From a virus (lineage: Duplodnaviria > Caudoviricetes), in IMG/VR virus record IMGVR_UViG_3300034072_000606, positions 1 through 53,818 of that record: a DNA stretch of 53,818 bases; one strand, given 5' to 3'. The stretch's first letter is position 1, and every line of letters begins with the position of its first letter. A model generated the notes under the pieces. The model saw only the letters and a list, made by a program, of their open reading frames with translations. It had not been told where the DNA came from and ran no database searches. The translations under genes and the position numbers were made by a program. This document shows, one piece after another, positions 478 to 51,077 of this stretch.

Positions 478-908
478 TATTCGAATGAATCCCTTGGGTA
501 CATAGAAAAGTCTTTATGATTGTTTTTGTTGGTTTCCCCCACGTAGTCCCCCGGAACAGCGCGGGTTGCGCGCTTCGCCTTAATCTTCGCCATCACTTCG
601 GGGCTCTGAACTCTGGCGAGCTCAGACACAGAGGCGTGGTTAAGGTCGATCCCCGCCGCGCTACAAAGAGCCGCAAGCGTGAGTGCGACGCCGCCAACTT
701 CCTGTTCCGGTTGACCTACGGGACGATTGAAGACGTAATAGACCAGCCCCTGAGCTTCGTCAGATGTACAGTCCATCGACTGAAACAACTCCAAAGCTTC
801 TTCAAGAAGCCTGAATGCCCGCTCGCGTTTGTTGGTGACGGTTTCGGGCGTGAAGCATTCGTCCATCCACTTCTTGACGCCTGCCTGATAGATATTGATG
901 CTGCTCAT
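477..908 (-). CDS. MazG-like nucleotide pyrophosphohydrolase-type protein
   Basis: LLEEALEL...QEVGGV acidic helices. Start moved to ATG 908 (ATGA overlap with the upstream stop). Confidence 0.55.
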   Translation of the reverse strand: MSSINIYQAGVKKWMDECFTPETVTNKRERAFRLLEEALELFQSMDCTSDEAQGLVYYVFNRPVGQPEQEVGGVALTLAALCSAAGIDLNHASVSELARVQSPEVMAKIKAKRATRAVPGDYVGETNKNNHKDFSMYPRDSFE

Positions 909-1327
909 TTCAAACCCTCCGGTTCTTTCACTTCCACTCCGCAAAGCCGGAATAGCTCAGCGGCCTTCTCCACGGTTTCGATCACCGCCGGATCGTCGCG
1001 CCACGGACCCGGCGGACAAACCACGCACTTGATCCCGAAGCCGATTATGAGCTTGGCGCATTCCTTACAAGGGTGAGCCGTCACCGTGAGCGTAGCCCCG
1101 GCGGCGAGACGACTGGCGCCAATCAAAGCCACGGCTTCAGCGTGGACAACTGCCTGATATTTCTTCTCGCGGTCTCCCCACCAGTCTTCTGGTACGCCTT
1201 CCGGAAATCGGTTCCATCCGGTACTGATGACCCCAAATCGTTTATCGTGGACGACCGCACCTACTTTGGTTGAGGGGTCGCGGCTGAATTTTGCTGCGTT
1301 CTGAGCTTCTTCAAAGAAAATGTCCAT
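905..1327 (-). CDS. dCMP deaminase
   Basis: SRDPSTKVGAV, TGWNRFP, HAE and PCKEC zinc-deaminase motifs. Confidence 0.92.
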   Translation of the reverse strand: MDIFFEEAQNAAKFSRDPSTKVGAVVHDKRFGVISTGWNRFPEGVPEDWWGDREKKYQAVVHAEAVALIGASRLAAGATLTVTAHPCKECAKLIIGFGIKCVVCPPGPWRDDPAVIETVEKAAELFRLCGVEVKEPEGLK

Positions 1328-1382: not shown

Positions 1383-3434
1383 TCATCCCATTGATGCGCC
1401 CCAGCTCTCGCCCAGCTCAACATCGACCTTAAATGGGACGTGTGTTTCCAACACGTTCTCCATTATCTCAGCCCCAAACTTCGCTTCTTCCGGGGTCATA
1501 GAGCCGTCGATTTCATCGTGGACCTGGAGCTGAACATAGAGCCCTGCCGCATCCATTTCCACCAGCGCCATCTTCGTCTGGTCGGCTGAGCCGCCCTGAA
1601 TGCGGCGGTTGAAAGCCTTGTGGAGCCAATCGAAGCTGCCGTCATCCTTTTGCGGGAACCGGCAACGCCGTCCGCCGATTGTTTCGATGAAGCCCTGCTT
1701 CTCAGCGAGCTTCTGCATATAGTTCGCCATCTTGCGGACGAACGGCACCTGACGGTCAAACATATCAATCAGGGCTTGGCCTTCGGCCCCGGCACATTCC
1801 CAATAGCGCACGTCATACCCGGCCTGACGACCCGCGTTAGCTTTCGCGACAACTTCTGCGTAAGTTTCGAAGTCCTTCTGCTTCCGGGCGCGACCCTCTT
1901 TCCACGTCAGTCTCCAAGCCGAAGGCAAACCCAAATCGCCGCACAGCTTAGCGCCTCCCATGCCGTAGGAAAGTCCCAGGAAGATGTTTTTCGCGTACTT
2001 GCGTTTCTGACTGAAAGCGGCTTTGCCGTGAAGTTCAAGATAGTCGTCACCGTTGATCATACGGGTCATCATATCGTGGAAGTCCATCGTGGGGTCTTCC
2101 CGATACCGCCGCGCTGCTTCCAGAGCGCTTTCATACGCAGCTGAGCCTATCGCTTCAGGGCCGGTCTCGATTGCCGAGTTGACGGCCTGTCTGGGCTCCT
2201 GCTGGGAGTAGTCGAGAGCGGCCCAAGGCACGCCGTTGTCCGGGACGTAAATGGATCGCCACATGGGTCCAATCTCGGGATCGCGAGCGGGTTGATTTTG
2301 AAAGTTGAAGTTGGCAGAACTCAGACGCCCAAAAGCAGCGCCTTCGGTCTCGCCGCTTTCATCGTCCTTCTGGCGACGGAGCTGATTGAACGTACAATGA
2401 GCTCGACCGTTGGTGAGATGCTCCTTGACGCTGTCGCAGAACGTGGATCGCAGCGTGCTCATCTTTTTGGCTCGCCGGAGGTGATCACCGATAGGATGGT
2501 CAAGGCTGTCGAGAACCTTAGCCGTCACGCTATCCTTGCCGGACTTCGCTGTTTTGGGCAGATCGATACCCAGCTCCCGGAGGACGGAAGCGAGGACGGC
2601 AGTGTTGGTGATATCGCCGAAGCTCAGGCGACGACCTGAATGAACGGAGTTGGCTGCGTCAATCGCCTTCTGCTGCTCAGAGCGGGCCCAAGCATCGACC
2701 TGCTCAAGCCGGTCTTCGTCAACCTTCACGCCCCGGCGGCGCATCTTCACCAGAACCGGAAGGACCCGGCTTTCAAGGTTGAAGACCCTCCAGAGGTCCT
2801 GATTTTCAATCTCGCGTTCCTGTCGCCGGAGGATTTGAAGGGGCAGGCGGGCGTCCTGCTCACCGTAGGGGCCTACCAGCTTGGCAGGGAGCGCCCAAAT
2901 ACCGCCTTTAGCGGCCTTGCCTGTGTAACCGTATGCCGCGAGCGCCTCGCGCAATAGGGTCTCATCCTTGCCGGGAAGGTTCCACCGCTCGCTGATTGAC
3001 TCAAGGCTGTAGCTGTAGTGGAGCTCATTGATGAGGGGGTCGGCCACTTGAACATCACGGAACCACTTGACATTAGGGAACACAATTCCCTCTTCTTCAA
3101 GAAAGTCCAGATCGTACCCGAGATTGGCGCCGACTAGGATGCCGTCAAATTTCGCTGCGCAGTCCCGGAGGTACGCAATCACCTGCGCCGGGGGAAGGTT
3201 TCCGCCCCCGGCGTGGCGTATCGGAAGATAAAAGCAGGGGCCGTCCTCAATCGCGATTGAGATGCCGGCAATGTAAGCCCCCCGGCGAACCCCGGGACCC
3301 ATTTTGGTCAGAAGGTCGTCCCGGTTCTCCGTATCAATCGCAACCCGACCCGATCCCCAGGAGGTCGGGAGGTCGGAAAGGTTAGGGGCGGTCCACGAGC
3401 TTTCTGGCTCAAACAGGGGCAATTGCGCGTACAT
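1383..3434 (-). CDS. polA: Family A DNA polymerase with 3'-5' exonuclease
   Basis: Exo AIDTE; GRLSSANFNFQN; motif A LDYSQQEPR; motif B RKYAKNIFLGLSYG; motif C VHDEI. Confidence 0.96.
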   Translation of the reverse strand: MYAQLPLFEPESSWTAPNLSDLPTSWGSGRVAIDTENRDDLLTKMGPGVRRGAYIAGISIAIEDGPCFYLPIRHAGGGNLPPAQVIAYLRDCAAKFDGILVGANLGYDLDFLEEEGIVFPNVKWFRDVQVADPLINELHYSYSLESISERWNLPGKDETLLREALAAYGYTGKAAKGGIWALPAKLVGPYGEQDARLPLQILRRQEREIENQDLWRVFNLESRVLPVLVKMRRRGVKVDEDRLEQVDAWARSEQQKAIDAANSVHSGRRLSFGDITNTAVLASVLRELGIDLPKTAKSGKDSVTAKVLDSLDHPIGDHLRRAKKMSTLRSTFCDSVKEHLTNGRAHCTFNQLRRQKDDESGETEGAAFGRLSSANFNFQNQPARDPEIGPMWRSIYVPDNGVPWAALDYSQQEPRQAVNSAIETGPEAIGSAAYESALEAARRYREDPTMDFHDMMTRMINGDDYLELHGKAAFSQKRKYAKNIFLGLSYGMGGAKLCGDLGLPSAWRLTWKEGRARKQKDFETYAEVVAKANAGRQAGYDVRYWECAGAEGQALIDMFDRQVPFVRKMANYMQKLAEKQGFIETIGGRRCRFPQKDDGSFDWLHKAFNRRIQGGSADQTKMALVEMDAAGLYVQLQVHDEIDGSMTPEEAKFGAEIMENVLETHVPFKVDVELGESWGASMG

Positions 3435-3684
3435 CGGTCACCAGTTTGTCTGCTTGCTGATCGGATAAGAGACGGCGAACCTTTTTGACGCCGTGACTCA
3501 CTGTCGTGCGGTCTCGCTGAAGCTGGAGACCGATTTGCGTGAAGTTGTTCTGCTCCATCCACATCAGCCACATCACGATCTGACGGGCCCAAGCAACCTC
3601 CGGGGAGCAACGGGTGGAGCAGAGAAGCTGAGCCCGGGAAACCCCGAACTCAGCCTCAACAACCTTGAGAACGGTCTCAAGCAT
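3409..3684 (-). CDS. Stand-alone DnaA C-terminal (domain IV) HTH DNA-binding protein
   Basis: VEAEFGVS..LL...R...VAWARQIVMWL......QIG...RDRTTVSHG matches the DnaA domain IV signature (RQIAMYL...IG..F.RDHTTV.HA). Confidence 0.8.
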   Translation of the reverse strand: MLETVLKVVEAEFGVSRAQLLCSTRCSPEVAWARQIVMWLMWMEQNNFTQIGLQLQRDRTTVSHGVKKVRRLLSDQQADKLVTDVRAIAPV

Positions 3685-4078
3685 GGATCGCCTCATAAGC
3701 GTCGATCATCTTTTCCAGATAATGGATCGCCCGGTCAATATCATCGTGATCCAACCAGCAATCGATCATCGTTATCGCCACGGCGTCGTCGCTGTTCAGA
3801 TCGATCCCGTTGGACTTCAGGAAGTCATAACGGCGATGATCAGACCGCATTGGACGATTGAAGGCCGGAGGGCAATAAGTAATCCCCAGAGCTTTGATCT
3901 TCTGGAGATAGGTGATTGCCTTCTTGAGGCCCTGAACGCCGTCCTTCTTGCGCCAGCGGGTGACGTATTTGGTGGCGCAGCCCTCCAGATACCCGAGACC
4001 GGTTTCAGCGGCCCAGTCCCAGTGCTGATACGTTGCTTCGTAGTGATCCCCGCCGACCTGTTCAACGTGAGCGTTCAT
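3677..4078 (-). CDS. DUF3310 / T7 gp1.7-like protein (possible dNMP kinase)
   Basis: QVGGDHY...EG.ATKYVTRWRKKDG..GLKKA..YL. Confidence 0.75.
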   Translation of the reverse strand: MNAHVEQVGGDHYEATYQHWDWAAETGLGYLEGCATKYVTRWRKKDGVQGLKKAITYLQKIKALGITYCPPAFNRPMRSDHRRYDFLKSNGIDLNSDDAVAITMIDCWLDHDDIDRAIHYLEKMIDAYEAIHA

Positions 4079-4509
4079 CGGCTCGCCTCCTCAGCGAGAC
4101 GTTCAACCAGCTCATCCCAGGACGTCATCAGTTCAACGTCCGGGAGGGCAGTGAACACGCTTTCGTGACCCGGGGGAAGATGGTCGTGACCACCCTTACG
4201 CGGATCAAGGTCCAGCACCGCAATCGTGCGATGACCGAGTGCGTGGGCGTAGCCGAACTCAAACCATCGACCGCCGCCCCGGTTCTCAGACGCCTGCGGC
4301 TCGCCGATGAAGACGAGCGTATCAGCGCGGCGAACGTCTTCCACGTCTCGGATCGCGTGATACTGGATGTTGTCGCCAGCGGCTTCATCATCCCAAATCC
4401 AGCCGCCGGTGATCTCGTAACCGGCGGCTTGAAGCTTCGCCGCGACTTCCCGCAAGGCGAACCTCTGGGCATATTTGGCCGCAATGTAAATCTTACGCGT
4501 TTTCATCAA
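4075..4509 (-). CDS. Nucleoside 2-deoxyribosyltransferase / dNMP N-glycosidase family protein
   Basis: IYIAA, DVEDVRRAD and GG..FEFGYAHALG motifs. Confidence 0.8.
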   Translation of the reverse strand: MMKTRKIYIAAKYAQRFALREVAAKLQAAGYEITGGWIWDDEAAGDNIQYHAIRDVEDVRRADTLVFIGEPQASENRGGGRWFEFGYAHALGHRTIAVLDLDPRKGGHDHLPPGHESVFTALPDVELMTSWDELVERLAEEASR

Positions 4510-4666
4510 TTATCACCGTGATGGTCTGTGGCGGCTTCTCTTTGAAAGCCGACCGTTTGATGTAGATTGACTCAAGGCCGCCGTCACCGGCCTTGAAACC
4601 ATATCGATAGCTGTTCTTGGGCTGGCGGTCGTCAGCCAGCAGCTCCATTTTGATTTTCAGCAGCAT
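4493..4666 (-). CDS. 57-aa hypothetical protein (not in ORF track)
   Basis: Read by hand: MLLKIKMELLADDRQPKNSYRYGFKAGDGGLESIYIKRSAFKEKPPQTITVIIDENA; overlaps both neighbours and fills the gap. Confidence 0.6.
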   Translation of the reverse strand: MLLKIKMELLADDRQPKNSYRYGFKAGDGGLESIYIKRSAFKEKPPQTITVIIDENA

Positions 4667-5744
4667 GATTCACTCCGTCATCCGCCGCCCGGGATCGCGA
4701 GCGAGCCCGGTTTGTGAGCCAAAGTGTGGCCCCCACCCTCCAGTCGTTGTCGGCTGGGATTTGTTCCAGTATCTCGGATGCGTCCAAAATACCGGTCTTC
4801 TTGCTCGCCTTGAAGGCCCGGTGAGCCATAACCATCGGGCAGGCGACCTTGCGCAGGAACGGCGAGCGAATGCCGATCCGGGCCGGGTCTTCGAAGAACA
4901 TGTTGATGTCTTCCAGGATTTCCTTTTCAGACTGCCCAGAGAACATATCCATCGGGCGCACGACATTGCGGCCATACGGGTCCTGGATCGGCTGACCGGC
5001 GGTCGGGTGAACCTTCGAAACACCCCACGGCCATTCGACCGGGGCCTTGTCCAGCGTGGACAGATAGGCGTGATAGTTGTTCGCCACCTGCCAATAGTAG
5101 CCCATCGGCACGCCGATCATCGCGGCAAGGTATTCCTGAAGGACGGAGAAGTGAACGGCGTTGGCGCCATAGGCCCCCCAGACCATATCGTTGGATCGGT
5201 TGAAAACGGTTAGGTTCAGCTTCCCGTCAACGATAGCCGGCAGGGCCATCAGGTTACACGGAATATCCTTGCCGCCGCGATCCGCAGCAGGCTGATCGGT
5301 TTCCGCGTCGTACATCTGGATGACAACGCGGCGGTCACTGGGGTCTTCCTTCAGGCGACGGATCGCCCACGCGAGCTGATCAAGCGTATTCAGCCGGGGA
5401 CTGTCGGCAATGAAATGCTTGCGCCAGCGGTGGCCATAGGCCCCGGGGACCGTCTTGCCATCATCGCTATAGCGCCCGAAGTCGGCGACGTAAGGCGTCA
5501 GGGCCTTGAGGTCGTTGCGACCGGCGATCATCCAGAGCGATTCAACGAGATGGAAGAAGGGGTTGGCATCCCGGACCTCGTTGAACAGGACGCGCTCCTG
5601 CGGGCAGGTGTAGAACGTGGACACCGGGCCAGGAAGAACCAGCACCGGGCCGTTCCGGGTCTCACTCTGGACGCCGTATTGGCGGATGATGTTAGCCCCC
5701 GACCAAAGGGCGTCGTTCACGTTGCGGGCTTCGATAGTGATCAT
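4632..5744 (-). CDS. Thymidylate-synthase-fold enzyme, probable dUMP hydroxymethylase
   Basis: ETRNG, RDANPFFH, GAYG.RWR, DIPCN (catalytic Cys), RSND..WG.YGAN (Asn implies dUMP specificity), NNYHAY. Context of HMUDK and aGPT-PPlases. Start at ATG 5744 with AGGAGA RBS. Confidence 0.85.
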   Translation of the reverse strand: MITIEARNVNDALWSGANIIRQYGVQSETRNGPVLVLPGPVSTFYTCPQERVLFNEVRDANPFFHLVESLWMIAGRNDLKALTPYVADFGRYSDDGKTVPGAYGHRWRKHFIADSPRLNTLDQLAWAIRRLKEDPSDRRVVIQMYDAETDQPAADRGGKDIPCNLMALPAIVDGKLNLTVFNRSNDMVWGAYGANAVHFSVLQEYLAAMIGVPMGYYWQVANNYHAYLSTLDKAPVEWPWGVSKVHPTAGQPIQDPYGRNVVRPMDMFSGQSEKEILEDINMFFEDPARIGIRSPFLRKVACPMVMAHRAFKASKKTGILDASEILEQIPADNDWRVGATLWLTNRARSRSRAADDGVNHAAENQNGAAG

Positions 5745-5893
5745 TTCTTGTCTGTCTCCTTGGTCTTCTTGACCTTTGGTTTGCGACACAACGCAGGGAA
5801 ATTGTGGCGGTGTCTCGCTTCTTCGATTGCCGACCGGGAGACGTGGCCGCAAATACAGCCCCACGTCATCCGCCAATATGCAGAACGGCCCAT
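5741..5893 (-). CDS. 50-aa basic protein with CxC..HxH putative zinc finger (not in ORF track)
   Basis: MGRSAYWRMTWGCICGHVSRSAIEEARHRHNFPALCRKPKVKKTKETDKK; TGATG and ATGA overlaps at its two ends. Confidence 0.65.
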   Translation of the reverse strand: MGRSAYWRMTWGCICGHVSRSAIEEARHRHNFPALCRKPKVKKTKETDKK

Positions 5894-6870
5894 CAGTAGC
5901 CCCTCCCCGGAATGTATTGGGCTCTTGGCTTGCCCTCCCCGTTCTTAACCCGGAGGTATTTGTCCACTTCGCAGCAACAATTCTGAATGTCGCTGAGGTC
6001 GATATGCGGAACCCAAGGGGCGCGGAAGCGGTCCTGCTCCTCGTAAATCTGCCTCATTTCGTCCAGCCCCTGATCCTGAGACAGGTTGAAATTCACGTCG
6101 CGACCGGCGAGCCGATTGAGGCCGCGCCGGGACCCCGGGCCGACTGCGGCCCAAGTATTGATATCAGGCGCTCCCCGGAGATAACGGGTGTGGCGCATAT
6201 CCACGCAGACCTGATAGGCCATAAAAGGCCCCCAGCCGATATAGCGGGGGTGCTGGAACCTTGCCCAAACAGACTCCATAGCCAAGCCGCCTTCGGGCTG
6301 GTCTTCAAGGATCGCTTCCCATTCGTGACGATCCTCCCACAGGCGACCGATGACGATGCGGGCGACGTACTGCTGCTTGGTCCAGCTGTACCATTCCGCT
6401 TTCGGGTTGCTCTCAGCCCGGATCATATACGCCCCGGTGTAGACCTTCTCGCCTTGCTTCGACCACCAGTCAAGAGCCCTGCCGAGATTAGAGGGGCTGA
6501 AGATCGAAGAAGTTGGCCAAGGGTAGCCGCTCGCAATCAAAAACTGGAGCGTCTGCGGCCAGTTGATGTAACGCCCAATCGCGAGCATCAGCCAGAGGTG
6601 GCGGTCATCGGCGTAGGGATCGCGGATGTGCTCCTTGATCCATGCCGTCACGCGGTCTAACTCCCGGAAGACATTACAGAAGCGGTACGCCTTGAGGATC
6701 GGGTCGGCTGTAAAGACCCCGGACGGCAAGCCCATGTATTCTTCAGTGAACACTTCTTGGTTCACCGGCCATTGTAAAAGCTCGTTGCCGGCAGCAGCTT
6801 CTTTGCGCAGATAGATCGCGTGGCGCTCGTTGACCCAATTCCAGAGGGGCGCGGTGTCAAGGTTTGCCAT
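5893..6870 (-). CDS. aGPT-PPlase clade 1 (amino acid/amine:DNA transferase-like, HhH glycosylase fold)
   Basis: NERHAIY, DPIL..YRFCNVFRELDRVT, YTGAYMI, GPFMAYQV.VD, GPGSRRGLNRL, QNCCCEVDKY. Confidence 0.88.
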   Translation of the reverse strand: MANLDTAPLWNWVNERHAIYLRKEAAAGNELLQWPVNQEVFTEEYMGLPSGVFTADPILKAYRFCNVFRELDRVTAWIKEHIRDPYADDRHLWLMLAIGRYINWPQTLQFLIASGYPWPTSSIFSPSNLGRALDWWSKQGEKVYTGAYMIRAESNPKAEWYSWTKQQYVARIVIGRLWEDRHEWEAILEDQPEGGLAMESVWARFQHPRYIGWGPFMAYQVCVDMRHTRYLRGAPDINTWAAVGPGSRRGLNRLAGRDVNFNLSQDQGLDEMRQIYEEQDRFRAPWVPHIDLSDIQNCCCEVDKYLRVKNGEGKPRAQYIPGRGY

Positions 6871-7159
6871 TGATCTTAACCCCTTCAAAACCCAACCCCG
6901 TCATGAAGCAGCAAGCATGACCTTCTGTTTCCGGCGGCGTGACTCCGGGTTTGTTGGACAAGGCGTAACCGGTCGCAGAACAAAACAGACGCTCCGCGAT
7001 GGTCAGAGGACTCATTTCCGAAACCGCCGCCAATTCTATAACGGTCGGATGGTCGGAAAGATCGCAAATCATTCTGACGACCTTCTCGCCAAGGGGGAGT
7101 ACGATCTGAGCGACCTGTGAATTGGTCTTGGCGCTGAAGTCTTCGGCCTTGAACATCAC
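6857..7159 (-). CDS. Hypothetical protein within the modification operon
   Basis: Overlaps both neighbours; no recognisable motif. Confidence 0.6.
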   Translation of the reverse strand: MMFKAEDFSAKTNSQVAQIVLPLGEKVVRMICDLSDHPTVIELAAVSEMSPLTIAERLFCSATGYALSNKPGVTPPETEGHACCFMTGLGFEGVKINGKP

Positions 7160-7764
7160 GTCCTCCCGGACTTGAACGCAACGTAAGCCTTGAGGTCCTC
7201 AAAGGCGCGGTCGTGGCGTAGGTTGACGGTATCGATGCCGGCAGCATCGAATTTGGCACGGGTGGCGTTGATCGCCTTGATCTTGTCCCTGACCAGATCA
7301 ACCTTGATTTCCCGGGTCTCGCCCTTGGCCGCGATCTGACGAGCCCGGATGCGCTCAAGGCAAAGCTCCAGCGGCGTGTCGAGATAGGCGATGAGAACTT
7401 GCTCGTGATGAATCCGGTTGTTGTCCCGGAAGAAATCCAGCCAGCTCCCGGCAACGGTCGAAGCCAGAACGCCTTCGCAGAGGACGTGTTCAACCGAGCA
7501 ACCCAACTCCAAGGCATATTGGATCGCGCCCTGCTGGATAGCGAAAGATGGAATTGTGTCCATTCCTCCGCAGCCTTGTTTGTAGGACCCGATGGCCATC
7601 ACGCCGTTACCGGCGTAGCCTTCGACCCGAAGACGGCGCGACGGGTCTTTCTTGGTCGGCGCGTCGTAAAAGTTGAGGTCAACCGGGTCCGGGTTCTCGC
7701 CGATCATTTGACGGGCGAGGTGGGTCTTGCCTGACCCGTTTGTTCCACGAATATTGATGATCAC
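7156..7764 (-). CDS. 5-hydroxymethyluridine DNA kinase (5-HMUDK, P-loop)
   Basis: IINIRGTNGSGKT, IGSY...CGGMDTI, CEG, LDTPLE.CLERI..R; flanked by aGPT-PPlases. Confidence 0.85.
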   Translation of the reverse strand: MIINIRGTNGSGKTHLARQMIGENPDPVDLNFYDAPTKKDPSRRLRVEGYAGNGVMAIGSYKQGCGGMDTIPSFAIQQGAIQYALELGCSVEHVLCEGVLASTVAGSWLDFFRDNNRIHHEQVLIAYLDTPLELCLERIRARQIAAKGETREIKVDLVRDKIKAINATRAKFDAAGIDTVNLRHDRAFEDLKAYVAFKSGRT

Positions 7765-7787
7765 GTTGGTTCTCCTTTTCTGATCCG

Positions 7788-7816
7788 ACCTTATCCCCGG
7801 AGTGGATAACAGTCAA
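7788..7816 (-). promoter_or_regulatory. Sigma70-like promoter TTGACT-N17-TAAGGT containing an inverted TTATCCAC/TTATCCCC pair
   Basis: Intergenic, 17-nt spacer, AGAAAAGGAG RBS downstream. Confidence 0.6.
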
Positions 7817-8649
7817 GCCTTGCCAGTTGGGTAAACTGCGAGTAGGTCTTGGGCTCCCCAAGCGGCCAGCTCGCGGCGATGGTCCTGGGTGTCTTTCCCG
7901 ATGAAGTAATGACCCTTCCGGGCGCTCTTCCACTTACACAGGACGGTCTCAACCTCCTGGATGTTACAAAATCGGGAACTGGATTTGCCTTTGAAACCGG
8001 GGGCTAAAATCCCCGCGTAAGCATCAAGCAACATCTCAACAACTCTCTGAGGCGTCATACCCAAGTTGCCAGTAGGGTCGAAAATGGTTGACATCATTTC
8101 AGCCCCCTCTCGGGGGTCCTTGTAGAGCGTGACCAACTCCTCTGGAAACGTGATTGGAACGCCCAAAACACGCTCAAGCATATCAGCGGCCTTGAACGCG
8201 ATCCACGGGCCGAACTGAGGCCAGTCCATAGCCTTGTTGACCTGTTCAAGTGTCCGGCAACCCTCAAGGCTGATCACCGCCTCTTCAGGGTGATTGAACC
8301 GGGACCTAAGCCATTCAACGCTGTCAACGCATTTCTGGCCGCGCCAGTGCCGACGCTCGTGCGCTCTGGGCCAACGAGCGCCGCCGCCCGGGATGCCTTG
8401 GGATTGAGGCCCGCATCCATCCGGGTTTTCTGCGGCAAGATGAAGATATTGCCAGAACCGAGTGCCGGAGTGATCGCTGATCCAATAGCTCGCGCCGACC
8501 GAATAGCAGCACCAGTAGGCGAGCATAAAGCGACGAAGGCGCGAGCCCTTGACATCCCATTCCGTCAGGCCGACATAAAGCGGGTCATGGTCATTGGTAA
8601 GAATGAGTTTCCGGCCCCATTCAACGGGGTTGTTGATCAGGTCTGTCAC
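7813..8649 (-). CDS. aGPT-PPlase clade 2 (amino acid:DNA transferase)
   Basis: LI.T.D.DP.Y, AYWC.Y, RWPR..ERRHWRG, FGPWIAFK.ADM.ER, QEVETVLCKWKS. Confidence 0.87.
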   Translation of the reverse strand: MTDLINNPVEWGRKLILTNDHDPLYVGLTEWDVKGSRLRRFMLAYWCCYSVGASYWISDHSGTRFWQYLHLAAENPDGCGPQSQGIPGGGARWPRAHERRHWRGQKCVDSVEWLRSRFNHPEEAVISLEGCRTLEQVNKAMDWPQFGPWIAFKAADMLERVLGVPITFPEELVTLYKDPREGAEMMSTIFDPTGNLGMTPQRVVEMLLDAYAGILAPGFKGKSSSRFCNIQEVETVLCKWKSARKGHYFIGKDTQDHRRELAAWGAQDLLAVYPTGKA

Positions 8650-9479
8650 GTCAAAGCCTCCAATAGCTTGGCAGCGGCCCAGCCGGCAGCTGCGGTTCCG
8701 TTCTTCCCTCCGCCCGTCAGGCTCCAGAGCCCCGGGGCAACTTCTTCCAGCGCCGCCGGATCGCTTGTCTGGGCGAAGGGTCTGACGCCGATCCGAACCT
8801 CACCGCCGCCTTGACCGGCGAAGTCGGATATGCGCTTGGTGGATTGCTCTTCCCGCAACCCGTCCCAATTCTTCTCAAGGATCGCCGTGCCGTCCCCGGC
8901 CCAGTGGAAGCCGTCACAGGAGAACCGAACCAGCTGCTTGTACGGAGCCCAAACAGATATCCGGTTGTCTTCAACTTCCTTGAAGAGGCGCAGGCTCAAG
9001 CCGACCTTGCCGACGACCGGGACGCCGGTGATGAGCTGACGGGTCCAAGCGCCGCAGGCGACGATGACGTGTTTGGCGTTCGCGTGGTCAAGAGGGTTAT
9101 CGGGATTCAGAAACCTCACCCGATTGCCCCCGGGGTATGTCGAAACTTTTATTACCTTTCGCCCTATCCAATCAGGCCATTTCGCGTCCCGATCCATCAC
9201 CACGTCCGGGTTGATCCATTCCGCGTTCACGGAAACCGGGCCAGCTTTGAGCGAGACGGTGCGCAGACCATACAGCCTGTCTAGGAGCCTGAAAGATCGC
9301 TCCACGTTGTCCTTGCCCATCTTCTGGAGCCAGGACGGTTTCATCAGGCACCCGGCGGCGCGAGACCCGGAGCGGGGCCGACCGTCATCAATGATCAACA
9401 CGTCCATTCCTGCGTCCCGGAGCGCCGCCCCGGCTATGGAGCCGAAGAGGCCCCCGCCTACGATGATGACGTCACGCAC
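8646..9479 (-). CDS. FAD-dependent oxidoreductase (DAO/glycine-oxidase fold), candidate flavin-dependent C-N lyase acting on modified DNA
   Basis: VIIVGGGLFG FAD motif, GSRAAG, ACGAW, WAPYKQ, GVRP, TGGGKNG; GTGA-coupled to aGPT-PPlase2. Confidence 0.82.
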   Translation of the reverse strand: MRDVIIVGGGLFGSIAGAALRDAGMDVLIIDDGRPRSGSRAAGCLMKPSWLQKMGKDNVERSFRLLDRLYGLRTVSLKAGPVSVNAEWINPDVVMDRDAKWPDWIGRKVIKVSTYPGGNRVRFLNPDNPLDHANAKHVIVACGAWTRQLITGVPVVGKVGLSLRLFKEVEDNRISVWAPYKQLVRFSCDGFHWAGDGTAILEKNWDGLREEQSTKRISDFAGQGGGEVRIGVRPFAQTSDPAALEEVAPGLWSLTGGGKNGTAAAGWAAAKLLEALT

Positions 9480-9820
9480 TGTTGGTTCTCCTTTTCTGAC
9501 CTCCGGCGATCCATGCGCCGGGATTGGTTGATTTCCTTCGGGACGTATTCAAGGCAATCCGGGTTGACGCACAGGCTGAAGACGCACTTGTGATCCCGGT
9601 CGTGACCTTTAGGGAGCGGCCCCTTTTTCCCGATCACCTCACACGCGAAGCGATGAGCCCGGACGCGACCGATCTTGCGGTTGACATAGAATGTCCCGTA
9701 CCACTTCTTGTTTCCCTGACCCCGGCTACGAGCCCCTGTCCAGAACCAGCACCCGCAAGGGAGCTTGTCCACGTGCTTCATAAACCGATCTATTTCGGCT
9801 TGGGTTGCTTGGATGGTCAT
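9458..9820 (-). CDS. HNH endonuclease
   Basis: GCWFWTG, YG.F, RAHR, DHKC..SLCVNP.CL..V....N. Confidence 0.85.
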   Translation of the reverse strand: MTIQATQAEIDRFMKHVDKLPCGCWFWTGARSRGQGNKKWYGTFYVNRKIGRVRAHRFACEVIGKKGPLPKGHDRDHKCVFSLCVNPDCLEYVPKEINQSRRMDRRRSEKENQQCVTSSS

Positions 9821-9895
9821 GTAGTGCTCCTTTTCTACTGCCTCAGCCCCCGCACTCAAAGAGCCGGGGGCTGCGACAGTTCAATCAGGCGTCAG

Positions 9896-10117
9896 TCAGA
9901 TGGTACTCGGAACCGGCTCATCAGTGCGCGCCAGGAGGCGCTTCAGGAAAGAACGGGTCGGGGCCGGAGACGACCGGGCGACAGTGATCAGAGCGGCGAT
10001 GCCGGCGGCGAGGAAAAGGGTCTCAGCGGTGGGCTTGAAGGCAAGGACACTCAGCACCAGCGAGACGGTACTGATGAGCGTGATCAGAAAGTAACTGCGG
10101 AAATAACGGCGAACCAT
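9896..10117 (-). CDS. Small two-TM membrane protein
   Basis: Two hydrophobic stretches; GGAGG RBS before ATG 10117. Confidence 0.6.
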   Translation of the reverse strand: MVRRYFRSYFLITLISTVSLVLSVLAFKPTAETLFLAAGIAALITVARSSPAPTRSFLKRLLARTDEPVPSTI

Positions 10118-10173
10118 GATGGCCTCCAAGTTGTTTGCGGTTGAAAGACGGGGACAACCCCATCAGCGGTATT

Positions 10174-10202
10174 AAGCTAACCCGGGATCGCGCCCGGGTC
10201 TA
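10174..10202 (-). promoter_or_regulatory. Sigma70-like promoter TAGACC-N17-TAGCTT with palindromic spacer
   Basis: ACCCGGG-N6-CCCGGGT spans the spacer; lies at the head of the modification operon. Confidence 0.45.
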
Positions 10203-10207
10203 GCGCC

Positions 10208-11107
10208 TCAGTCCTGTCCTCCAAGCATCTCCATTGCGAGTGCGATCTGGTCTTTCTCCTCGACCTCGCGCAACAGGGACGCATCCCATATTGCCTCGTC
10301 GCGGATCATCTTCACGTTCCGCTCGATAAGGCGTTCAATGTATTTGGGGTCCAGTGCGTCAAGCTCCCAAGAGTGATCGCCGAACTCACGCCGATAGTCT
10401 TCAAACCGGCTATCAGTCTCCTTAGCCGGGTTTGGGGGCGGTTTGATTTCCTCAATCTGGTCCATGTTCAAGGCGAGACGTTGAACAGTGACAGGGGTGC
10501 CGGCAAATAGGCTCAGGCGCTCCCGGTTATCCCGCGTCATATCAAGCCCAGAGGGGTCGTGATCCCCGAGATGGAAGACGATGGGCCTCTGACCCTTTCG
10601 AACGTAATTGGCGAACCGTTGACCGGCCCTCCACTGCTCGCTCTGGCTGTTGTAGCCCTTGATAGCGAAGAAATTGACCCGTAGCTTGTTACAAATCCCG
10701 GCGATCACGCCCTCAAGCGCCTGCTTCTCGACCCAGACTTCAGGACGCCATTCTTGATCCGCCCACAAGTCCCGACGATAGGAATTATGAACGGCCTCCA
10801 GAGCTTGATTCGGATGCGTGTAGGTTTCGAGCCCCTTGAGGTTGCGGCCACGGTCTTCAATCGCCGTCCAGCTGACGAGACCCGCCATGCGTCCTTTGTT
10901 GATGACCGATCCAAGCATATTGTAAGATTGCTGCTTGTTCGGGATAAGGTCGCGAGCAACAAACTGATAGTACAGCTGACGCAGGGTCAGGGAGTAGCCT
11001 TGGGCCTCGTAGCTGTCGATGATCTGGTTCGCTTGTGCGATTAGATTGAGGGTGTCCTGCCGGAAGTTGGAGGACTCATAAGCCCTGAAGTGACCTTTCC
11101 CGCTCAT
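10208..11107 (-). CDS. Topo VI-A/Spo11/JetD-like wHTH-TOPRIM protein (DUF2399-like)
   Basis: TLRQLYY (putative catalytic Tyr), VWVEKQAL, LGDHDPSG (DxD), RLALN, WELDAL. Confidence 0.78.
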   Translation of the reverse strand: MSGKGHFRAYESSNFRQDTLNLIAQANQIIDSYEAQGYSLTLRQLYYQFVARDLIPNKQQSYNMLGSVINKGRMAGLVSWTAIEDRGRNLKGLETYTHPNQALEAVHNSYRRDLWADQEWRPEVWVEKQALEGVIAGICNKLRVNFFAIKGYNSQSEQWRAGQRFANYVRKGQRPIVFHLGDHDPSGLDMTRDNRERLSLFAGTPVTVQRLALNMDQIEEIKPPPNPAKETDSRFEDYRREFGDHSWELDALDPKYIERLIERNVKMIRDEAIWDASLLREVEEKDQIALAMEMLGGQD

Positions 11108-12105
11108 TTCAACCTCGCAACACCGGAGGACTTGTGAGCGGTTTGGGGATCGATCCCGACTTTCTCAGCTGCGTCGTACCCGGCCCAATAGGTGCTGGAA
11201 TCAACATCCGACTTCGGCGAAGCGCGGCGACCGCCCCGACGACGAGCCCAATAAGCCTCATCCGCCTTGCGTTGCTTCTCCTCTTCCTTGCGCGCCTCCT
11301 CCGGGTTCGCTGCGGCCCATTCCGCATAAGCCTTCTCAGCCGCAGCGGCTTCTTCAGCGGCTTTCCGGCGAGCTTCGGCCTGCTTGGCGCTCCAGCCCTC
11401 GCCATAGATGAAGTCCATGTTGGCTTCCCGCTCGCTCTTGCGAACGTCCGCAATCGTCAGAGTGGTCGCGGTCGATACCCCGGCGCGGGCGGCTGCGTGC
11501 TCAGCCTTGCGCTTGCGTTCGGCTTCCTCTTCCTCCAGCTGGTCGCGGCGGTCTTGAACCTTCTCGATGATACGGGCAGCAGCACCCTTGCGATAAGACA
11601 CGGCCCAACGGGAGAACCGCTGAGTGTTGTCGTTGTCGAGCCGCTCCATGACAAGCCGCTCAATCGTCTGCTCAAGATAGGAAGCCATGGATTGAGTGAG
11701 CTTAACGTTGACGATGCGACCAACAACGCGGTGCTGGTATTGGATCGACCAGACGTCATCCTTGTAGGTTGTACCGTCCCATTGCTTCCGGTTGACCTCG
11801 CGGCGGTGCCATTTCCGGCTCGTCCAGTACACGCAGAAATTCAGCTCAGAGACTGCGCGCCAGAGGTCACGCTGGTAGAGATACACTCCTCCCTTATGCT
11901 TTGCGTCCTCGCGCCGCCCTGACGTGCCGGAGCCCTGCTCAACCATCGCCATATCGATGTTGTAAGCCGCGAGCATCTCCTGGGCCTTGGCAGCAGCTGC
12001 GGCGGCTTCGGCCTCGTTTCCCTTCTGCCGGTTGGCGAGAGCCAGAAGTTTCTCAACCTTCTGGATGATCTTGATTTGTTCTTCGCTGAGGTCTTGCTGG
12101 CTCAT
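11104..12105 (-). CDS. DUF2786 domain protein
   Basis: KVEKLLALA.....EAAAAAAKAQEMLAAYNI N-terminus; AGY..A..V at the C-terminus. Confidence 0.78.
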   Translation of the reverse strand: MSQQDLSEEQIKIIQKVEKLLALANRQKGNEAEAAAAAAKAQEMLAAYNIDMAMVEQGSGTSGRREDAKHKGGVYLYQRDLWRAVSELNFCVYWTSRKWHRREVNRKQWDGTTYKDDVWSIQYQHRVVGRIVNVKLTQSMASYLEQTIERLVMERLDNDNTQRFSRWAVSYRKGAAARIIEKVQDRRDQLEEEEAERKRKAEHAAARAGVSTATTLTIADVRKSEREANMDFIYGEGWSAKQAEARRKAAEEAAAAEKAYAEWAAANPEEARKEEEKQRKADEAYWARRRGGRRASPKSDVDSSTYWAGYDAAEKVGIDPQTAHKSSGVARLK

Positions 12106-12132: not shown

Positions 12133-12159
12133 AGGAAAAGGGGGCTCAAGCCCCCTTCT
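12133..12159 (-). terminator. Intrinsic terminator-like hairpin
   Basis: AAGGGGGCT-TG-AGCCCCCTT followed by TTCCTT, overlapping the stop of the DUF3489 gene. Confidence 0.55.
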
Positions 12160-13123
12160 TTACCGTGTGGGGAACCGGGGCGGTCATACCGGACGGCAGA
12201 ACCAGGTGATAACAATCTTCTTCAAAGCGCTTGACGGTGCGGATGCCGTAGCCCTTGACCTTGTTCATATCCCAGTTCATACCGGACTTGACGCTGACTT
12301 CCTTCCAGGGCTTCGCGCCGCCGGAAAGGGCCTCCAACAGCTCCCGCATAGTTGCGCCTTGAACGCGGGAAAGCATATCGACCAGAATGGCCTGCTTGGA
12401 ACCGGCGCGGCAGGGGTACGCCTTCTTCATCGGGGGAAGGTTGATGCCGGTGCCGCGACGGGGGGCGACCGGGGCGGCTTTCTTCGCCGGGGCCGGGATC
12501 GGGGCTGCGTTTTTGGCGTCTGCTTCCTTGATCGATTTGGCGATTGATACCGCGAGCTGCTCAGCGCGAGCTTCGGCAAGGTCCTGGAGATTTGCCCAAA
12601 GGCGCTTAACACCTGCGTCCTTGGTGGCGAAGCGCGAGACTTCGGCGATACCGGTGTTGAGCTCCTTGGCGGTCGTGTTGTAGAGCGCGACGAGCTGAGG
12701 GCCGGTGAGGTCGTTGAGGTCTTCCTGAGAAGCAGCAACATAATGGTCGGTTGAGGAAGCAACACCCGCGTTGTCGGTGAACTGAACGGCGAGATTTGCG
12801 AGGTCGATGATTGCGATATTCTTGGTCATTTTCGGGTTCTCCTTTTCTTCGGTGACGTAGTGAGCGATGAGGTCGAAAGACCGAAGGGCCTTTGCGTACT
12901 GCTCGGGGGTGCGGTTAGCCTTGAGATAAGCGAATTGCGACCGAACCTCTTCAATGTAGCTTTCGGTCATCTGGTCGTCTTGCTCTGCATTTTCAAATCC
13001 AGCAAGGTCCCAGCAGGTCGGGCAGGTCTTGGAATCAGTGCCCTGCTCGCCGGTCCAACGCGTGAGGTGGTCGCAGCAAGAGCAGGTGAAAGTCGAGGAA
13101 CCTTTTACGAAAGTCGAAACCAT
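12146..13123 (-). CDS. Early protein with N-terminal Cys-rich segment and C-terminal DUF3489-like wHTH
   Basis: CSCC...CPTC; GSKQAILVDMLSR..GAT..EL; in-frame internal RBS and ATG at 12829. Confidence 0.7.
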   Translation of the reverse strand: MVSTFVKGSSTFTCSCCDHLTRWTGEQGTDSKTCPTCWDLAGFENAEQDDQMTESYIEEVRSQFAYLKANRTPEQYAKALRSFDLIAHYVTEEKENPKMTKNIAIIDLANLAVQFTDNAGVASSTDHYVAASQEDLNDLTGPQLVALYNTTAKELNTGIAEVSRFATKDAGVKRLWANLQDLAEARAEQLAVSIAKSIKEADAKNAAPIPAPAKKAAPVAPRRGTGINLPPMKKAYPCRAGSKQAILVDMLSRVQGATMRELLEALSGGAKPWKEVSVKSGMNWDMNKVKGYGIRTVKRFEEDCYHLVLPSGMTAPVPHTVKKGA

Positions 13124-16845: not shown

Positions 16846-16976
16846 TTGGTTCTCCATTTCTGAAAGGGCGCTCCCCGCCTTGTCGGTCTGACGGGACAAA
16901 CCTACTGAGGCGGGGAGCTGGACGGGCGCTCCATCACGGCTTTCCCCGTCCTAATTCTGACCAGAGGACGAGATGA

Positions 16977-48035: not shown

Positions 48036-48115
48036 CTTGTTCAAGTCCGTACATCCTTATCCAAGCCTCGCGTTGCCAGCGAGAAACCTCAATTAAAGCC
48101 AGCTCGTGCGCCTCA

Positions 48116-50291: not shown

Positions 50292-51077
50292 TCACCGTTC
50301 CTCCTCATTCATGCCCAGAACCCCGCTGAGGTCTGGCTTGACGTAGTTCGGTCCCTTGACGACCCGGCCCGCGTCGCAGAGGATCGGCTTGCCGTCCGGT
50401 CCCAGCTTCGACATATTGGAGGCGTGAACCTCCGCATAGGCCGCGAGCTTGTAGTGGCCGAGACCCAGCGTCAGGTAGGTCCCATCGCAGACGTAGGACA
50501 TATCAGTCAGCGCGTCCAAGCACTCCACGATATCCCGGTTGAGAATGCCCTCAGCGAGCTCAGCAAGCTCTTCCTGGCAAAGCTGAAGGCGAATGAGGGC
50601 GAGCGAGCCTCCCTCATCGTTATACTCAAGGCACTCAGCCGCGTAAGCCTTGAGGTCCTCGCCTAGCTTCGCCGCCGCGCTCATATAGTCGCGAAGGTGG
50701 ACAGCGGCCACAGGGCCGTATTCCGGCACTTCAGGGGTCGGATTGATATGCGCCCCGAATGCCCCGGCGAACTCAGCGACGTGATCCAGACCCGGATCGA
50801 AGTAATGACCGTTGGAGGGCCGAACCTCCACCCGCGTTCCCGCCGAGACGATGCGCAGGGACGGGTCCAGGGTCAACGCGGCATTCAGCGCTGTAGCCAG
50901 ACGCAGGATGCGCCCTTGGGCCGTCTCCTTGCCCCGTACTTCATGGACCTCGTCGTGGAGTTTGAGAAGCATTTCGATGTCAGCCGCGTCCTGACGGCTT
51001 CCCACGGCTCGCTCTGCTTCGATATTTGCCTCAACCCGTTTCCGGGCTTCAGGGGTTAGTTTGATTGATGGTGTCAT
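50292..51077 (-). CDS. MazG / PRA-PH-like dNTP pyrophosphohydrolase
   Basis: VAEF..AF, QEELAEL, DALTD.SYV..G, EVH.SNMSK...G.P.....G.V.KG..Y..PDL. Confidence 0.85.
   Translation of the reverse strand: MTPSIKLTPEARKRVEANIEAERAVGSRQDAADIEMLLKLHDEVHEVRGKETAQGRILRLATALNAALTLDPSLRIVSAGTRVEVRPSNGHYFDPGLDHVAEFAGAFGAHINPTPEVPEYGPVAAVHLRDYMSAAAKLGEDLKAYAAECLEYNDEGGSLALIRLQLCQEELAELAEGILNRDIVECLDALTDMSYVCDGTYLTLGLGHYKLAAYAEVHASNMSKLGPDGKPILCDAGRVVKGPNYVKPDLSGVLGMNEEER

Follow-up and report, generated by a model that had tools for sequence, protein, structure and literature searches.

The DNA analysed here (the window, a viral record of 53,818 nucleotides) carries a PaMx11-type post-replicative thymidine hypermodification cluster that lacks the acetyltransferase. 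The encoded pathway very probably runs as far as 5-aminomethyl-2'-deoxyuridine (5-NmdU). Since no known tailoring gene follows the lyase step, free 5-NmdU is the most likely mature base, a prediction that we hold at slightly better than an even chance. The cluster occupies the minus strand from position 9479 down to 4632, where the ORF list of the window contains seven ORFs, all in the order given in the earlier note. They are assigned as follows:

8646..9479, minus strand: flavin-dependent N-alpha-glycinylthymine lyase (NGTO; PaMx11 gp47 orthologue), from PF01266 and PDB 8z2o/8z79
7813..8649, minus strand: amino acid:DNA transferase (aGPT-Pplase2) with predicted use of glycine as donor, from PF18724 and PDB 8z2m
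7156..7764, minus strand: 5-hydroxymethyl-dU DNA kinase (5-HMUDK, P-loop), from PF18748
6857..7159, minus strand: 100-aa ORF (orf100), clade-specific, with no family match
5893..6888, minus strand: aGPT-Pplase1 (Pfam HMUDK_hel), the standard companion of the kinase, from PF18723
5741..5893, minus strand: 50-aa Cys/His-rich basic peptide (orf50), a possible zinc binder from its Cys/His pattern
4632..5744, minus strand: thymidylate-synthase-fold enzyme, predicted dUMP hydroxymethylase, from phrog_5131

Both the gene identities and their order were borne out by Pfam, PHROG, PDB and tblastn matches. Reading of the sequence shows gene junctions that overlap in the motifs GTGA, TGATG and ATGA, a layout that fits a single operon with translational coupling. 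The earlier description of the genome as complete also stands, as a 153-nt terminal direct repeat (99% identity) indicates a complete record and CheckV estimates its completeness at 98%. The enzyme set is not unusual in the sense put forward in the earlier note; it is the PaMx11 set without the GNAT, and Pplase1 is a standard member. What truly sets the cluster apart from PaMx11 is limited to the missing GNAT, a different gene order and the two small clade-specific ORFs.

The thymidylate-synthase-like enzyme matches phrog_5131 (E 3.8e-114) and is 44% identical to both M6 gp58 (E 2e-92) and PaMx11 gp51 (E 2e-90). Its true start is the ATG at 5744, matched to residue 1 of gp51 in the alignment; a longer ORF reaching 5876 was rejected as an upstream extension. 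The nearest solved relative is the hydroxymethylase MilA (5b6d, E 6.8e-17), with the best thymidylate synthase at 1e-10. An Asn occupies the slot of a MilA Asp and may be read as uracil specificity, and the protein is predicted to be a dUMP hydroxymethylase rather than a thymidylate synthase. Such an enzyme would supply 5-hydroxymethyl-dUMP, which would be phosphorylated and then polymerised into phage DNA instead of dTMP. The kinase matches PF18748 (E 6.2e-9, 36.1 bits against a cut-off of 27) and, by tblastn, M6 gp54 (E 2e-20) and PaMx11 gp49 (E 3.9e-20). A Walker A motif, GTNGSGKT, and an AAGGAG motif shortly 5' of the GTG start can be read from its sequence. This P-loop kinase would convert 5-hmdU in DNA to 5-PmdU.

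The transferase and the lyase are clear orthologues of PaMx11 gp46 and gp47, respectively. The transferase matches PF18724 (E 1e-17, 65.1 bits against a cut-off of 26.2), the PaMx11 gp46 glycinyltransferase structure PDB 8z2m (E 1.2e-47) and 25qc (E 1.3e-45). Its catalytic Cys is conserved in the segment EVETVLCKWKS, aligned with M6 gp51 and PaMx11 gp46; passages of PMC8989533 describe this Cys and the neighbouring Glu as required in the family. All six equivalents of the YuA Pplase2 glycine-pocket residues (D24, E96, K159, K248, Y257 and D262) are kept, of which K248 and Y257 serve as the criterion for glycine in the relevant part of PMC13458397. In the proposed step the Cys would attack C6, the phosphate would be expelled and the amine of glycine would be added, yielding N-alpha-glycinylthymidine. 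The lyase aligns over residues 2-274 with the PaMx11 flavin-dependent lyase (PDB 8z2o, E 1.5e-58), matches PF01266 (E 3e-11) and phrog_16743 (E 1.5e-55), and carries an N-terminal dinucleotide-binding motif that reads GGGLFGS. It would oxidise the N-C-alpha bond, and hydrolysis would then free glyoxylate and leave 5-NmdU.

Overall identity between the window lyase and gp47 is just ~41%, and three DNA-contacting or pocket positions have changed (F52L, K202L and Y244F, the last being F235 in the window). These differences could mean that the flavin enzyme of this clade acts with another outcome, oxidising the opposite C-N bond and so forming 5-formyl-dU, or acting on another adduct; the final base would then be something other than 5-NmdU or one of its derivatives. 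We consider this very unlikely. The NGTO residues Y180, Q182, R210, R242 and K268 are conserved as Y180, Q182, R209, R233 and K259, of which R233 and K259 are invariant in 56/56 homologues and Y180 and Q182 are each present in 55/56. R242 in gp47 is proposed to bind the glycine carboxylate, and F52, K202 and Y244 are positions discussed by Wen et al. (PMC11472151). Y244F recurs in 6 of the 56 homologues and F52L in 20, among them loci bearing a GNAT or an amidoligase downstream, where the amine is needed; the partner transferase, moreover, keeps its glycine pocket. For the kinase, transferase and lyase steps leading to 5-NmdU, the data demonstrate orthology and conserved residues.

The absence of GNAT, PLP and radical-SAM genes from the genome, proposed in the earlier note, was confirmed by tblastn, Pfam, six-frame profile and family HMM searches in which the positive controls fired. 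The tblastn search with the PaMx11 gp48 acetyltransferase gave a best E of 2.4 in the window, and searches with M6 gp52 (PLP) and gp53 (radical SAM) gave no match at E <= 1. Pfam scans of 73 ORFs showed no GNAT, PLP, radical-SAM or methyltransferase family among the matches listed; for one batch of 22 ORFs (alignment A1) these were the best 25 of 29 families (weakest listed E 0.0042, limit 0.01). Profiles PF00583, PF13508, PF13673, PF04055, PF00291 and PF00155 had no match at E <= 1 in the six frames of the window, although all 14 control genomes were matched and PF00583 recovered PaMx11 gp48 (E 2.6e-16) and the Epa5 GNAT (E 6.7e-14). HMMs derived from the tailoring genes of relatives reached a best E of 0.08 in the window. 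The values were 2.2 for the GNAT family HMM, 1.6 and 1.1 for amidoligase-like (~330 aa) and LMWPc-like HMMs derived from 25 and 17 relatives, respectively, and 0.46 for an HD hydrolase HMM; the amidoligase-like and LMWPc-like HMMs match 27/60 and 18/60 IMG/VR loci. Four ORFs of GNAT-compatible size (16462-16899, 45912-46370, 46659-47090 and 47611-48192) had no family match when compared by sequence and profile methods. With GNAT, PLP and radical-SAM enzymes all missing from the search results, the last step that can be recognised is the one that forms 5-aminomethyl-dU. Because no gene for an acetyltransferase, amidoligase, PLP, radical-SAM or methyltransferase enzyme was found to follow the lyase, the mature base would most likely be free, cationic 5-NmdU, present at some of the T positions. 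What we infer from these data is how each protein acts, that the thymidylate-synthase-like enzyme is a hydroxymethylase and, most of all, that 5-NmdU is the end product.

Alternatively, 5-NmdU may be an intermediate that a host enzyme or an unrecognised phage protein (Pplase1, orf100, orf50 or another ORF) converts further, possibly to an undescribed base. This is unlikely on balance, yet it deserves real weight. Sixty IMG/VR loci with the flavin lyase were compared; the amine-forming pair is followed by a GNAT in 14/60 and by an amidoligase in 27/60, with neither present in 19/60, so that capping is the commoner state. In loci L035, L044, L045 and L057 the GNAT occupies the position between kinase and Pplase1 that orf100 takes in the window. 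Consideration of orf100 as a GNAT nevertheless led to its rejection, with hhalign probabilities of 9% for the single sequence and 0.5% with a three-sequence profile, and its 100 aa fall short of the 142-182 aa of relatives' GNATs (13/14). It has no Pfam or PHROG match, is 81% identical in locus L011 and has a positional counterpart, EVB34_006, in phage RHph_TM26.

Pplase1 matches PF18723 (E 8.3e-42), M6 gp55 (E 5.8e-92, 51% identical) and PaMx11 gp50 (E 9.8e-35). Its AlphaFold model (pLDDT 92) is structurally closest to PaMx11 gp46 (8z2m_A, Z 10.0, rmsd 4.1 over 219 residues), level with DUF2419 (Z 9.9); HhH DNA glycosylases come next (Z 8-9). The residues C306-E307, invariant in 40 sequences, fall opposite the catalytic LCK of Pplase2 in an hhalign comparison (probability 45%), a correspondence that would suit a further conversion of 5-NmdU. 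Against such a role, Pplase1 is found in 51/60 IMG/VR loci across tailoring classes and cannot explain a clade-specific product. Table 3 of PMC5889632, the part of that paper drawn on here, assigns one Pplase1 to each of the four model phages. The earlier suggestion that this clade-1 enzyme adds a second substituent is therefore not supported, since the protein is standard in every characterised cluster and its presence does not point to such an addition.

The start of orf50 overlaps the stop of Pplase1 (TGATG) and its stop overlaps the start of the thymidylate-synthase-like gene (ATGA). It was not found in loci L011 and L012, and shares 71% identity over 34 residues with a frame of RHph_TM26 that carries no annotation, in which the pattern C-x-C-x-H ... 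H-x-H ... C is conserved. The earlier label of zinc-finger ORF is just plausible: the pattern would suit it, but no Pfam or PHROG family matches the peptide.

The acetyltransferase-free form is not unique to the window. PF00583 was not found in the whole records of RHph_TM26 (complete), G001 and G002 (terminal repeats, 100% complete), which together with the window form a four-genome clade in the lyase tree (SH-aLRT 100). The lyases of this GNAT-free clade are 69-91% identical to that of the window, and this divergence within a fully supported clade indicates that the reduced state has persisted. PF00583 was likewise not found in the whole record of Stenotrophomonas phage Sonora (MZ326860), and a term search of its genome announcement (PMC9022593) returned no mention of DNA base modification. 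Nor were known tailoring families found in four related genomes that are complete or nearly so, which also speaks against further conversion of 5-NmdU. The cluster could instead be a decaying remnant, in which the acetyltransferase has been lost, the pathway is unused and virion DNA contains plain T or hmdU. All that points this way is the missing GNAT and the missing HD hydrolase, which accompanies most related clusters (HD HMM matches in 35/60 loci). All five enzymes are full length with intact catalytic motifs, their genes are tightly coupled, and the GNAT-free set has been kept in the four genomes across the divergence noted above, which argues for selection. We consider decay very unlikely.

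The comparison of the 60 loci suggests a modular layout with 5-NmdU as a possible hub: glycine transferase and lyase would make a common amine, which different phages would then leave bare, acetylate or pass to an amidoligase. Whether the virions of the whole clade, RHph_TM26 included, would carry free 5-NmdU, with unrelated lineages such as Sonora arriving at it independently and one-module swaps deciding between the bare, acetylated and amidated forms, seems to us evenly balanced.

Three further genes on the minus strand may serve the pathway or accompany it:

50292..51077, minus strand: MazG-like pyrophosphohydrolase, candidate dTTPase/dUTPase (PF01503 E 1.8e-5, residues 162-220)
905..1327, minus strand: candidate dCMP deaminase for dUMP supply (PF00383 E 1.2e-17 among the 22 ORFs of A1)
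3677..4078, minus strand: DUF3310 protein (phrog_5839 E 5.9e-29, PF11753 E 1.3e-4)

The role of the MazG-like protein is suggested by its likeness to gp18, the dTTPase/dUTPase of SH-Ab 15599 described in part of PMC13458397. Assignment of the deaminase to 905..1327 is based on synteny with the annotated RHph_TM26 deaminase downstream of polA. The DUF3310 protein is homologous to PaMx11 gp53 (E 1e-18) and M6 gp61 (E 3e-20); it is conserved beside such clusters and present in 35/65 clustered sequences.

To our knowledge, no virus particle has yet been found to contain the free amine base, and 5-NmdU is documented solely as an enzymatic intermediate. In an excerpt of PMC11550810, 5-aminomethyluracil is already listed among phage bases, with citation of earlier work. 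If the amine is free, the known natural bases of DNA would gain one whose primary amine sits a single carbon away from C5. Such a base would be chemically reactive and would bring a positive charge into the major groove, which matters for restriction evasion, for nucleases that recognise hypermodified DNA and for the enzymatic labelling of DNA. It would not represent a new kind of system, as all of the enzymes fall into families already described. Testing the prediction would cost little, since the reduced set also occurs in two cultured phages, RHph_TM26 and Sonora.

Among the closest known systems is that of PaMx11, in which the gp46-gp51 enzymes lead to 5-acetylaminomethyl-dU according to sections of PMC8989533 (Lee et al. 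2021) and PMC11472151 (Wen et al. 2024); the former agrees with the pathway given in the earlier note. Orthologues of gp46, gp47, gp49, gp50, gp51 and gp53 (DUF3310) are present in the window, and polA and a dCMP deaminase adjoin the cluster in both phages. In contrast to PaMx11, the window is without the gp48 acetyltransferase and the HD hydrolase gp52, its operon starts with the lyase and includes two additional small ORFs (orf100 and orf50), and its virion is Pam3/E217-like by structural Pfam families rather than that of a Mesyanzhinovviridae siphovirus. The M6/YuA pathway to 5-(2-aminoethyl)-dU employs gp51, gp52 (PLP), gp53 (radical SAM), gp54, gp55 and gp58. It has the kinase, glycine transferase, Pplase1 and thymidylate-synthase-like enzyme in common with the window, and so the same N-alpha-GlyT intermediate, whereas the window has the flavin lyase in place of the PLP and radical-SAM enzymes. 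The amidoligase-type variant combines the lyase with an amidoligase and usually a LMW phosphatase, neither of which was found in the window by the HMMs above. Among cultured phages, RHph_TM26 (MN988465) has the same order of FAD enzyme, Pplase2, kinase, small ORF, Pplase1 and thymidylate-synthase-like gene, with a lyase 71% identical, but a polynucleotide kinase/phosphatase gene separates its lyase and transferase. Sonora carries Pplase2, FAD enzyme, kinase, Pplase1 and the thymidylate-synthase-like gene, and differs by an extra Nmad5 protein (a Pfam label checked on a homologue).

Outside DNA modification, the FAD domain of tRNA MnmC (cmnm5U to nm5U) performs the same flavin cleavage of a glycine adduct on the C5-methyl of uracil, leaving an aminomethyl group, and gp47 resembles this domain according to a passage of Lee et al. 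(PMC8989533). The systems differ in that the substrate in the window would be DNA, not tRNA, and that no MnmC-type methyltransferase domain or family occurs among the matches listed in the Pfam scans. If the prediction holds, 5-NmdU would correspond in DNA to the nm5U of tRNA and would be the smallest of the cationic thymine hypermodifications.

All plausible genes of the 53,818-base IMG/VR record lie on the minus strand. The operon begins with the flavin enzyme, read from 9479 downward, and ends with a thymidylate-synthase (TS)-like gene:

8646-9479, minus strand: FAD enzyme (flavin lyase), first gene, 277 aa; PF01266, phrog_16743
7813-8649, minus strand: amino acid:DNA transferase (Pplase2), 278 aa; PF18724, 65.1 bits
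7156-7764, minus strand: P-loop 5-hmdU DNA kinase, 202 aa; PF18748, 36.1 bits against a cut-off of 27
6857-7159, minus strand: orf100, 100 aa, without family match
5893-6888, minus strand: Pplase1, 331 aa; PF18723, E 8.3e-42
5741-5893, minus strand: orf50, Cys/His-rich, 50 aa, without family match
4632-5744, minus strand: thymidylate-synthase-fold protein; phrog_5131, E 3.8e-114

Residue 1 of both PaMx11 gp51 and M6 gp58 aligns with the ATG at 5744, so this codon, and not the one at 5876, was taken as the start of the TS-like gene. Adjacent genes overlap by GTGA, TGATG or ATGA, which fits a single translationally coupled operon. Downstream are genes for DUF4406-like, DUF3310 and DnaA-C-like proteins, polA and dCMP deaminase, and the surroundings match the arrangement of Rhizobium phage RHph_TM26; only by way of this phage, whose host is Rhizobium sp. 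N4311, can a host be presumed. A scan of genome contigs for prophage copies or a host returned four metagenome-bin contigs, none from the window clade. The ends of the record (1-153 and 53666-53818) form a 153-nt direct repeat of 99% identity, so that the genome is complete and one unit measures 53,665 bases (IMG/VR class: linear). Together with the CheckV completeness estimate of 98%, this makes the loss of a gene off the record ends unlikely.

Several features lie outside the operon. An HNH endonuclease gene (9458-9859; phrog_1872, E 3.8e-20), probably encoding a homing endonuclease, is directly upstream and overlaps the flavin lyase start by 22 bases; among loci of relatives, L011 and L012 have it at the equivalent position, and L016 and L039 have it at others. 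The DUF4406 or nucleoside 2-deoxyribosyltransferase-like protein encoded at 4075-4509 (PF05014, E 3e-4, below the cut-off), between the TS-like and DUF3310 genes, is kept in L011 (92%), RHph_TM26 (65%) and L023 and may act on the nucleotide pool. A 325-aa ORF at 12146-13123, with a weak DUF3489 match, is homologous to M6 gp49 (E 7e-38), PaMx11 gp45 (2e-4) and gp38 of the Stenotrophomonas phage Sonora (4e-33); this homologue is directly upstream of Pplase2 in 26 of 65 clustered sequences and, in the window, 2.7 kb upstream of the operon. A 124-nt direct repeat of 84% identity (20584-20707 and 45400-45523) occupies two of the few intergenic gaps and may be a duplicated promoter or regulatory region. 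A promoter and terminator scan of 3000-11500 was uninformative, with 0 promoter-like sites (2.9 expected) and 5 terminator-like sites (8.6 expected). In the structural block (23579-44175), 1 of 24 ORFs matches the anti-CBASS Acb1 family (PF23474, E 5.1e-36), and the other matches are of Pam3/E217 type (cement protein, baseplate hub gp41, Pam3 gp32, gp33 and gp34-like); thus, the virion is of the Pam3/E217 myovirus type.

In the PaMx11 pathway, the kinase yields 5-PmdU, which gp46 converts with glycine to N-alpha-GlyT (315 u); gp47 cleaves this product to a 257 u nucleoside assigned as 5-aminomethyl-2'-deoxyuridine (5-NmdU), which the GNAT gp48 then acetylates to a 299 u species (Lee et al. 2021, PMC8989533). 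Aligned with M6 gp51 and PaMx11 gp46, the window transferase retains the catalytic Cys (EVETVLCKWKS) and all equivalents of D24, E96, K159, K248, Y257 and D262. These residues form the glycine pocket of YuA Pplase2, and K248 with Y257 is enough to turn a diamine transferase into a glycine user (Li et al. 2026, PMC13458397), which makes glycine the predicted donor of the window transferase. For the lyase, the equivalents of R242 and K268 of NGTO (PaMx11 gp47) are invariant in 56 homologues and Y180 and Q182 are each present in 55 of the 56; the window enzyme has all four. It departs from NGTO at F52 (L), K202 (L) and Y244 (F), changes common to 20, 13 and 6 of the 56 homologues, and a different outcome of the lyase reaction in the window clade is judged highly improbable. 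Decay of the operon, whose genes overlap and whose transferase retains its catalytic Cys, is a shade less probable still.

Among solved structures, the TS-like enzyme is closest to the CMP hydroxymethylase MilA (E 6.8e-17; best thymidylate synthase, 1e-10), and the MilA Asp position is an Asn in the window, which can be read as uracil specificity. Orthology to the M6 enzyme makes it a predicted hydroxymethylase. Ribonucleotide reductase and dCMP deaminase genes are also present, and the MazG-like protein (50292-51077) may, by analogy with PMC13458397, be a candidate dTTPase/dUTPase; the nucleotide-pool side of the pathway is putative as a whole.

The claim of the earlier note that the genome holds no GNAT, PLP or radical-SAM gene was borne out by tblastn, Pfam, six-frame HMM, hhalign and PHROG searches, all of which were negative. 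By tblastn against the window, PaMx11 gp48 gave a best E of 2.4, and M6 gp52 (PLP), M6 gp53 (radical SAM) and the Sonora Nmad5 protein a best E of 0.6. No GNAT, PLP, radical-SAM or methyltransferase family was among the Pfam matches listed for 73 window ORFs at E ≤ 0.01 (sets of 10 + 22 + 17 + 24 ORFs; 25 of 29 matched families listed for the 22-ORF set). The HMM check for the three enzyme types, run in six frames over the whole record with PF00583, PF13508, PF13673, PF04055, PF00291 and PF00155, returned 0 matches for each family at E ≤ 1, and 14 of 14 control genomes matched. HMMs trained on tailoring genes of the relatives (GNAT, amidoligase, LMW phosphatase, radical SAM, Nmad5, HD, NT5C and TET/JBP) reached a best E of 0.08 among all window six-frame ORFs of at least 60 aa, hhalign probabilities for four such profiles stayed at or below 10% with all 72 window proteins compared, and PHROGs on ten unassigned ORFs indicated no transferase. 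Four ORFs of 143-193 aa (16462-16899, 45912-46370, 46659-47090 and 47611-48192) are without any match by sequence or profile. Further alteration of 5-NmdU by an unrecognised phage or host step, the leading alternative, is considered rather unlikely.

Within the operon, orf100 has an 81% identical homologue in L011 and, by position, a counterpart in RHph_TM26. It occupies the GNAT slot of four loci and is the top window protein against the relatives' GNAT profile (hmmsearch E 2.2, hhalign probability 9%). As a cryptic or truncated GNAT it is unsupported, a three-sequence profile giving a probability of 0.5% over a different region; orf100 had no feature match in the Atlas and its model has a pLDDT of 0.51. 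A homologue of orf50 with the Cys and His positions retained lies in the RHph_TM26 locus at 5560-5775, minus strand; the published annotation of that phage leaves 200 nt blank between TS and Pplase1 genes, and this homologue is encoded there. Neither orf100 nor orf50 has a recognisable fold or family.

Searched over whole records, PF00583 is missing as well from RHph_TM26 (54.5 kb, circular), Sonora and two related genomes, G002 (terminal repeats, 100% complete) and G001 (96% complete); the positive control, gp48 in PaMx11, was matched at E 2.6e-16. A profile of 68 lyase homologues retrieved 60 IMG/VR loci, which were classified by six-frame HMM search. A gp48-type GNAT was present in 14, an amidoligase-like 330-aa protein in 27 (PF12224 weak, E 0.0015; e.g. 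L016:8792-9787) and neither in 19, a class that is not always minimal because some loci hold further unassigned ORFs among the core genes; in 14 of these 19, the lyase is flanked by 2 kb or more on each side. Whole-record searches with PF00583 were negative for four more loci of this class (L053, L063, L065 and L069) and positive for Epa5 (L037). On a lyase tree built by a quick method, with FAD rows shorter than 230 aa left out, the window, L011, RHph_TM26 and L012 form one clade (SH-aLRT 100), all without an enzyme capping the amine, and the three tailoring classes need at least 16 changes. The tailoring module has therefore often been exchanged, and the window clade has retained the bare state. 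A large protein database holds 25 further lyases with 54-88% identity to that of the window. The acetyltransferase-free operon described earlier is a real and reasonable observation. An argument from absence, strengthened because the lack of a capping enzyme is conserved across the clade, leans modestly towards an amine of 5-NmdU that stays free in the window phage.

The amidoligase-like protein, not GNAT, is the commonest partner of glycine transferase and flavin lyase (range L014-L058), and its loci represent an uncharacterised arm of the pathway. An LMW-phosphotyrosine-phosphatase-like protein (PF01451, E 4.9e-19; L016:10097-10579) accompanies it in 18 loci, and a radical-SAM/SPASM enzyme is added in three (L025, L033 and L043). 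A TET/JBP dioxygenase (PF12851, E 3.8e-13) is encoded in L065:5776-7219 and also in L066 and L043, with the TS-like gene absent within the fetched locus; 5-hmdU may therefore arise on DNA, not from dUMP, in these three.

Pplase1 is no addition particular to the window operon: all four model phages have one listed in Table 3 of Lee et al. 2018 (PMC5889632). It is present in 51 of the 60 IMG/VR loci, irrespective of tailoring class. In SP10, Pplase1 is fused to the kinase, hence the Pfam name of the family. The best structural match of the Pplase1 model (pLDDT 92) in a wide VIA-align search is PaMx11 gp46 (Z 10.0, rmsd 4.1, 219 residues), tied with DUF2419 (Z 9.9) and followed by HhH glycosylases; a Z of 10.0 is modest for a helical protein, so fold kinship only is claimed. 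Foldseek of the model against the PDB gave none at E ≤ 0.001 (top rows HhH glycosylases, E about 0.1), and Pplase1 queried by sequence against the PDB had no useful match (best E 0.22). Two residues, C306 and E307, do not vary across 40 sequences and fall opposite the catalytic LCK of Pplase2 in an hhalign comparison (probability 45%). Judged by this alignment and the structural match, Pplase1, too, appears to attack C6. The speculative idea that it turns remaining phosphorylated sites into T is possible; the available text of papers naming Pplase1 assigns it no activity.

In the literature searched, outside which lay most subscription journals, figures and supplements, no report of 5-NmdU as a mature virion base was found, and it appears only as the gp47 product or as a synthetic nucleotide. 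PaMx11 virion DNA was not obtainable by Lee et al. 2021, so even the acetylated base has been seen only in reconstituted reactions (PMC8989533). Figure 2 and Supplementary Figure S15 of that paper may already depict acetyltransferase-free lyase clusters. 5-Aminomethyluracil is listed, citing earlier work, among the bases of some bacteriophages (PMC11550810), and the Sonora genome announcement, in its available text, makes no mention of modification (PMC9022593). The prediction of a free amine is testable on cultured phages.

The window operon was set against CHARACTERISED pathways, using tblastn for PaMx11 and M6 proteins and PDB matches for solved structures. For the flavin enzyme, the match to the solved lyase PaMx11 gp47 spans the whole length (E 1.5e-58); for the transferase, the solved matches are the glycinyltransferase PaMx11 gp46 (E 1.2e-47) and another Pplase2, 25qc (E 1.3e-45). 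By tblastn, the kinase is orthologous to PaMx11 gp49 and M6 gp54 (E about 1e-20), Pplase1 matches PaMx11 gp50 (E 1e-34) and M6 gp55 (E 6e-92), the TS-like enzyme matches PaMx11 gp51 (E 2e-90) and M6 gp58 (E 2e-92), and the DUF3310 protein is orthologous to PaMx11 gp53 and M6 gp61. Since its enzymes are orthologous to ones with measured activities and solved structures, the predicted steps up to 5-NmdU very probably operate in the window phage. By HMM search, the window lacks the HD hydrolase typical of M6 and PaMx11. The window operon is a reduced variant of the known pathway, one that is recurrent in nature.
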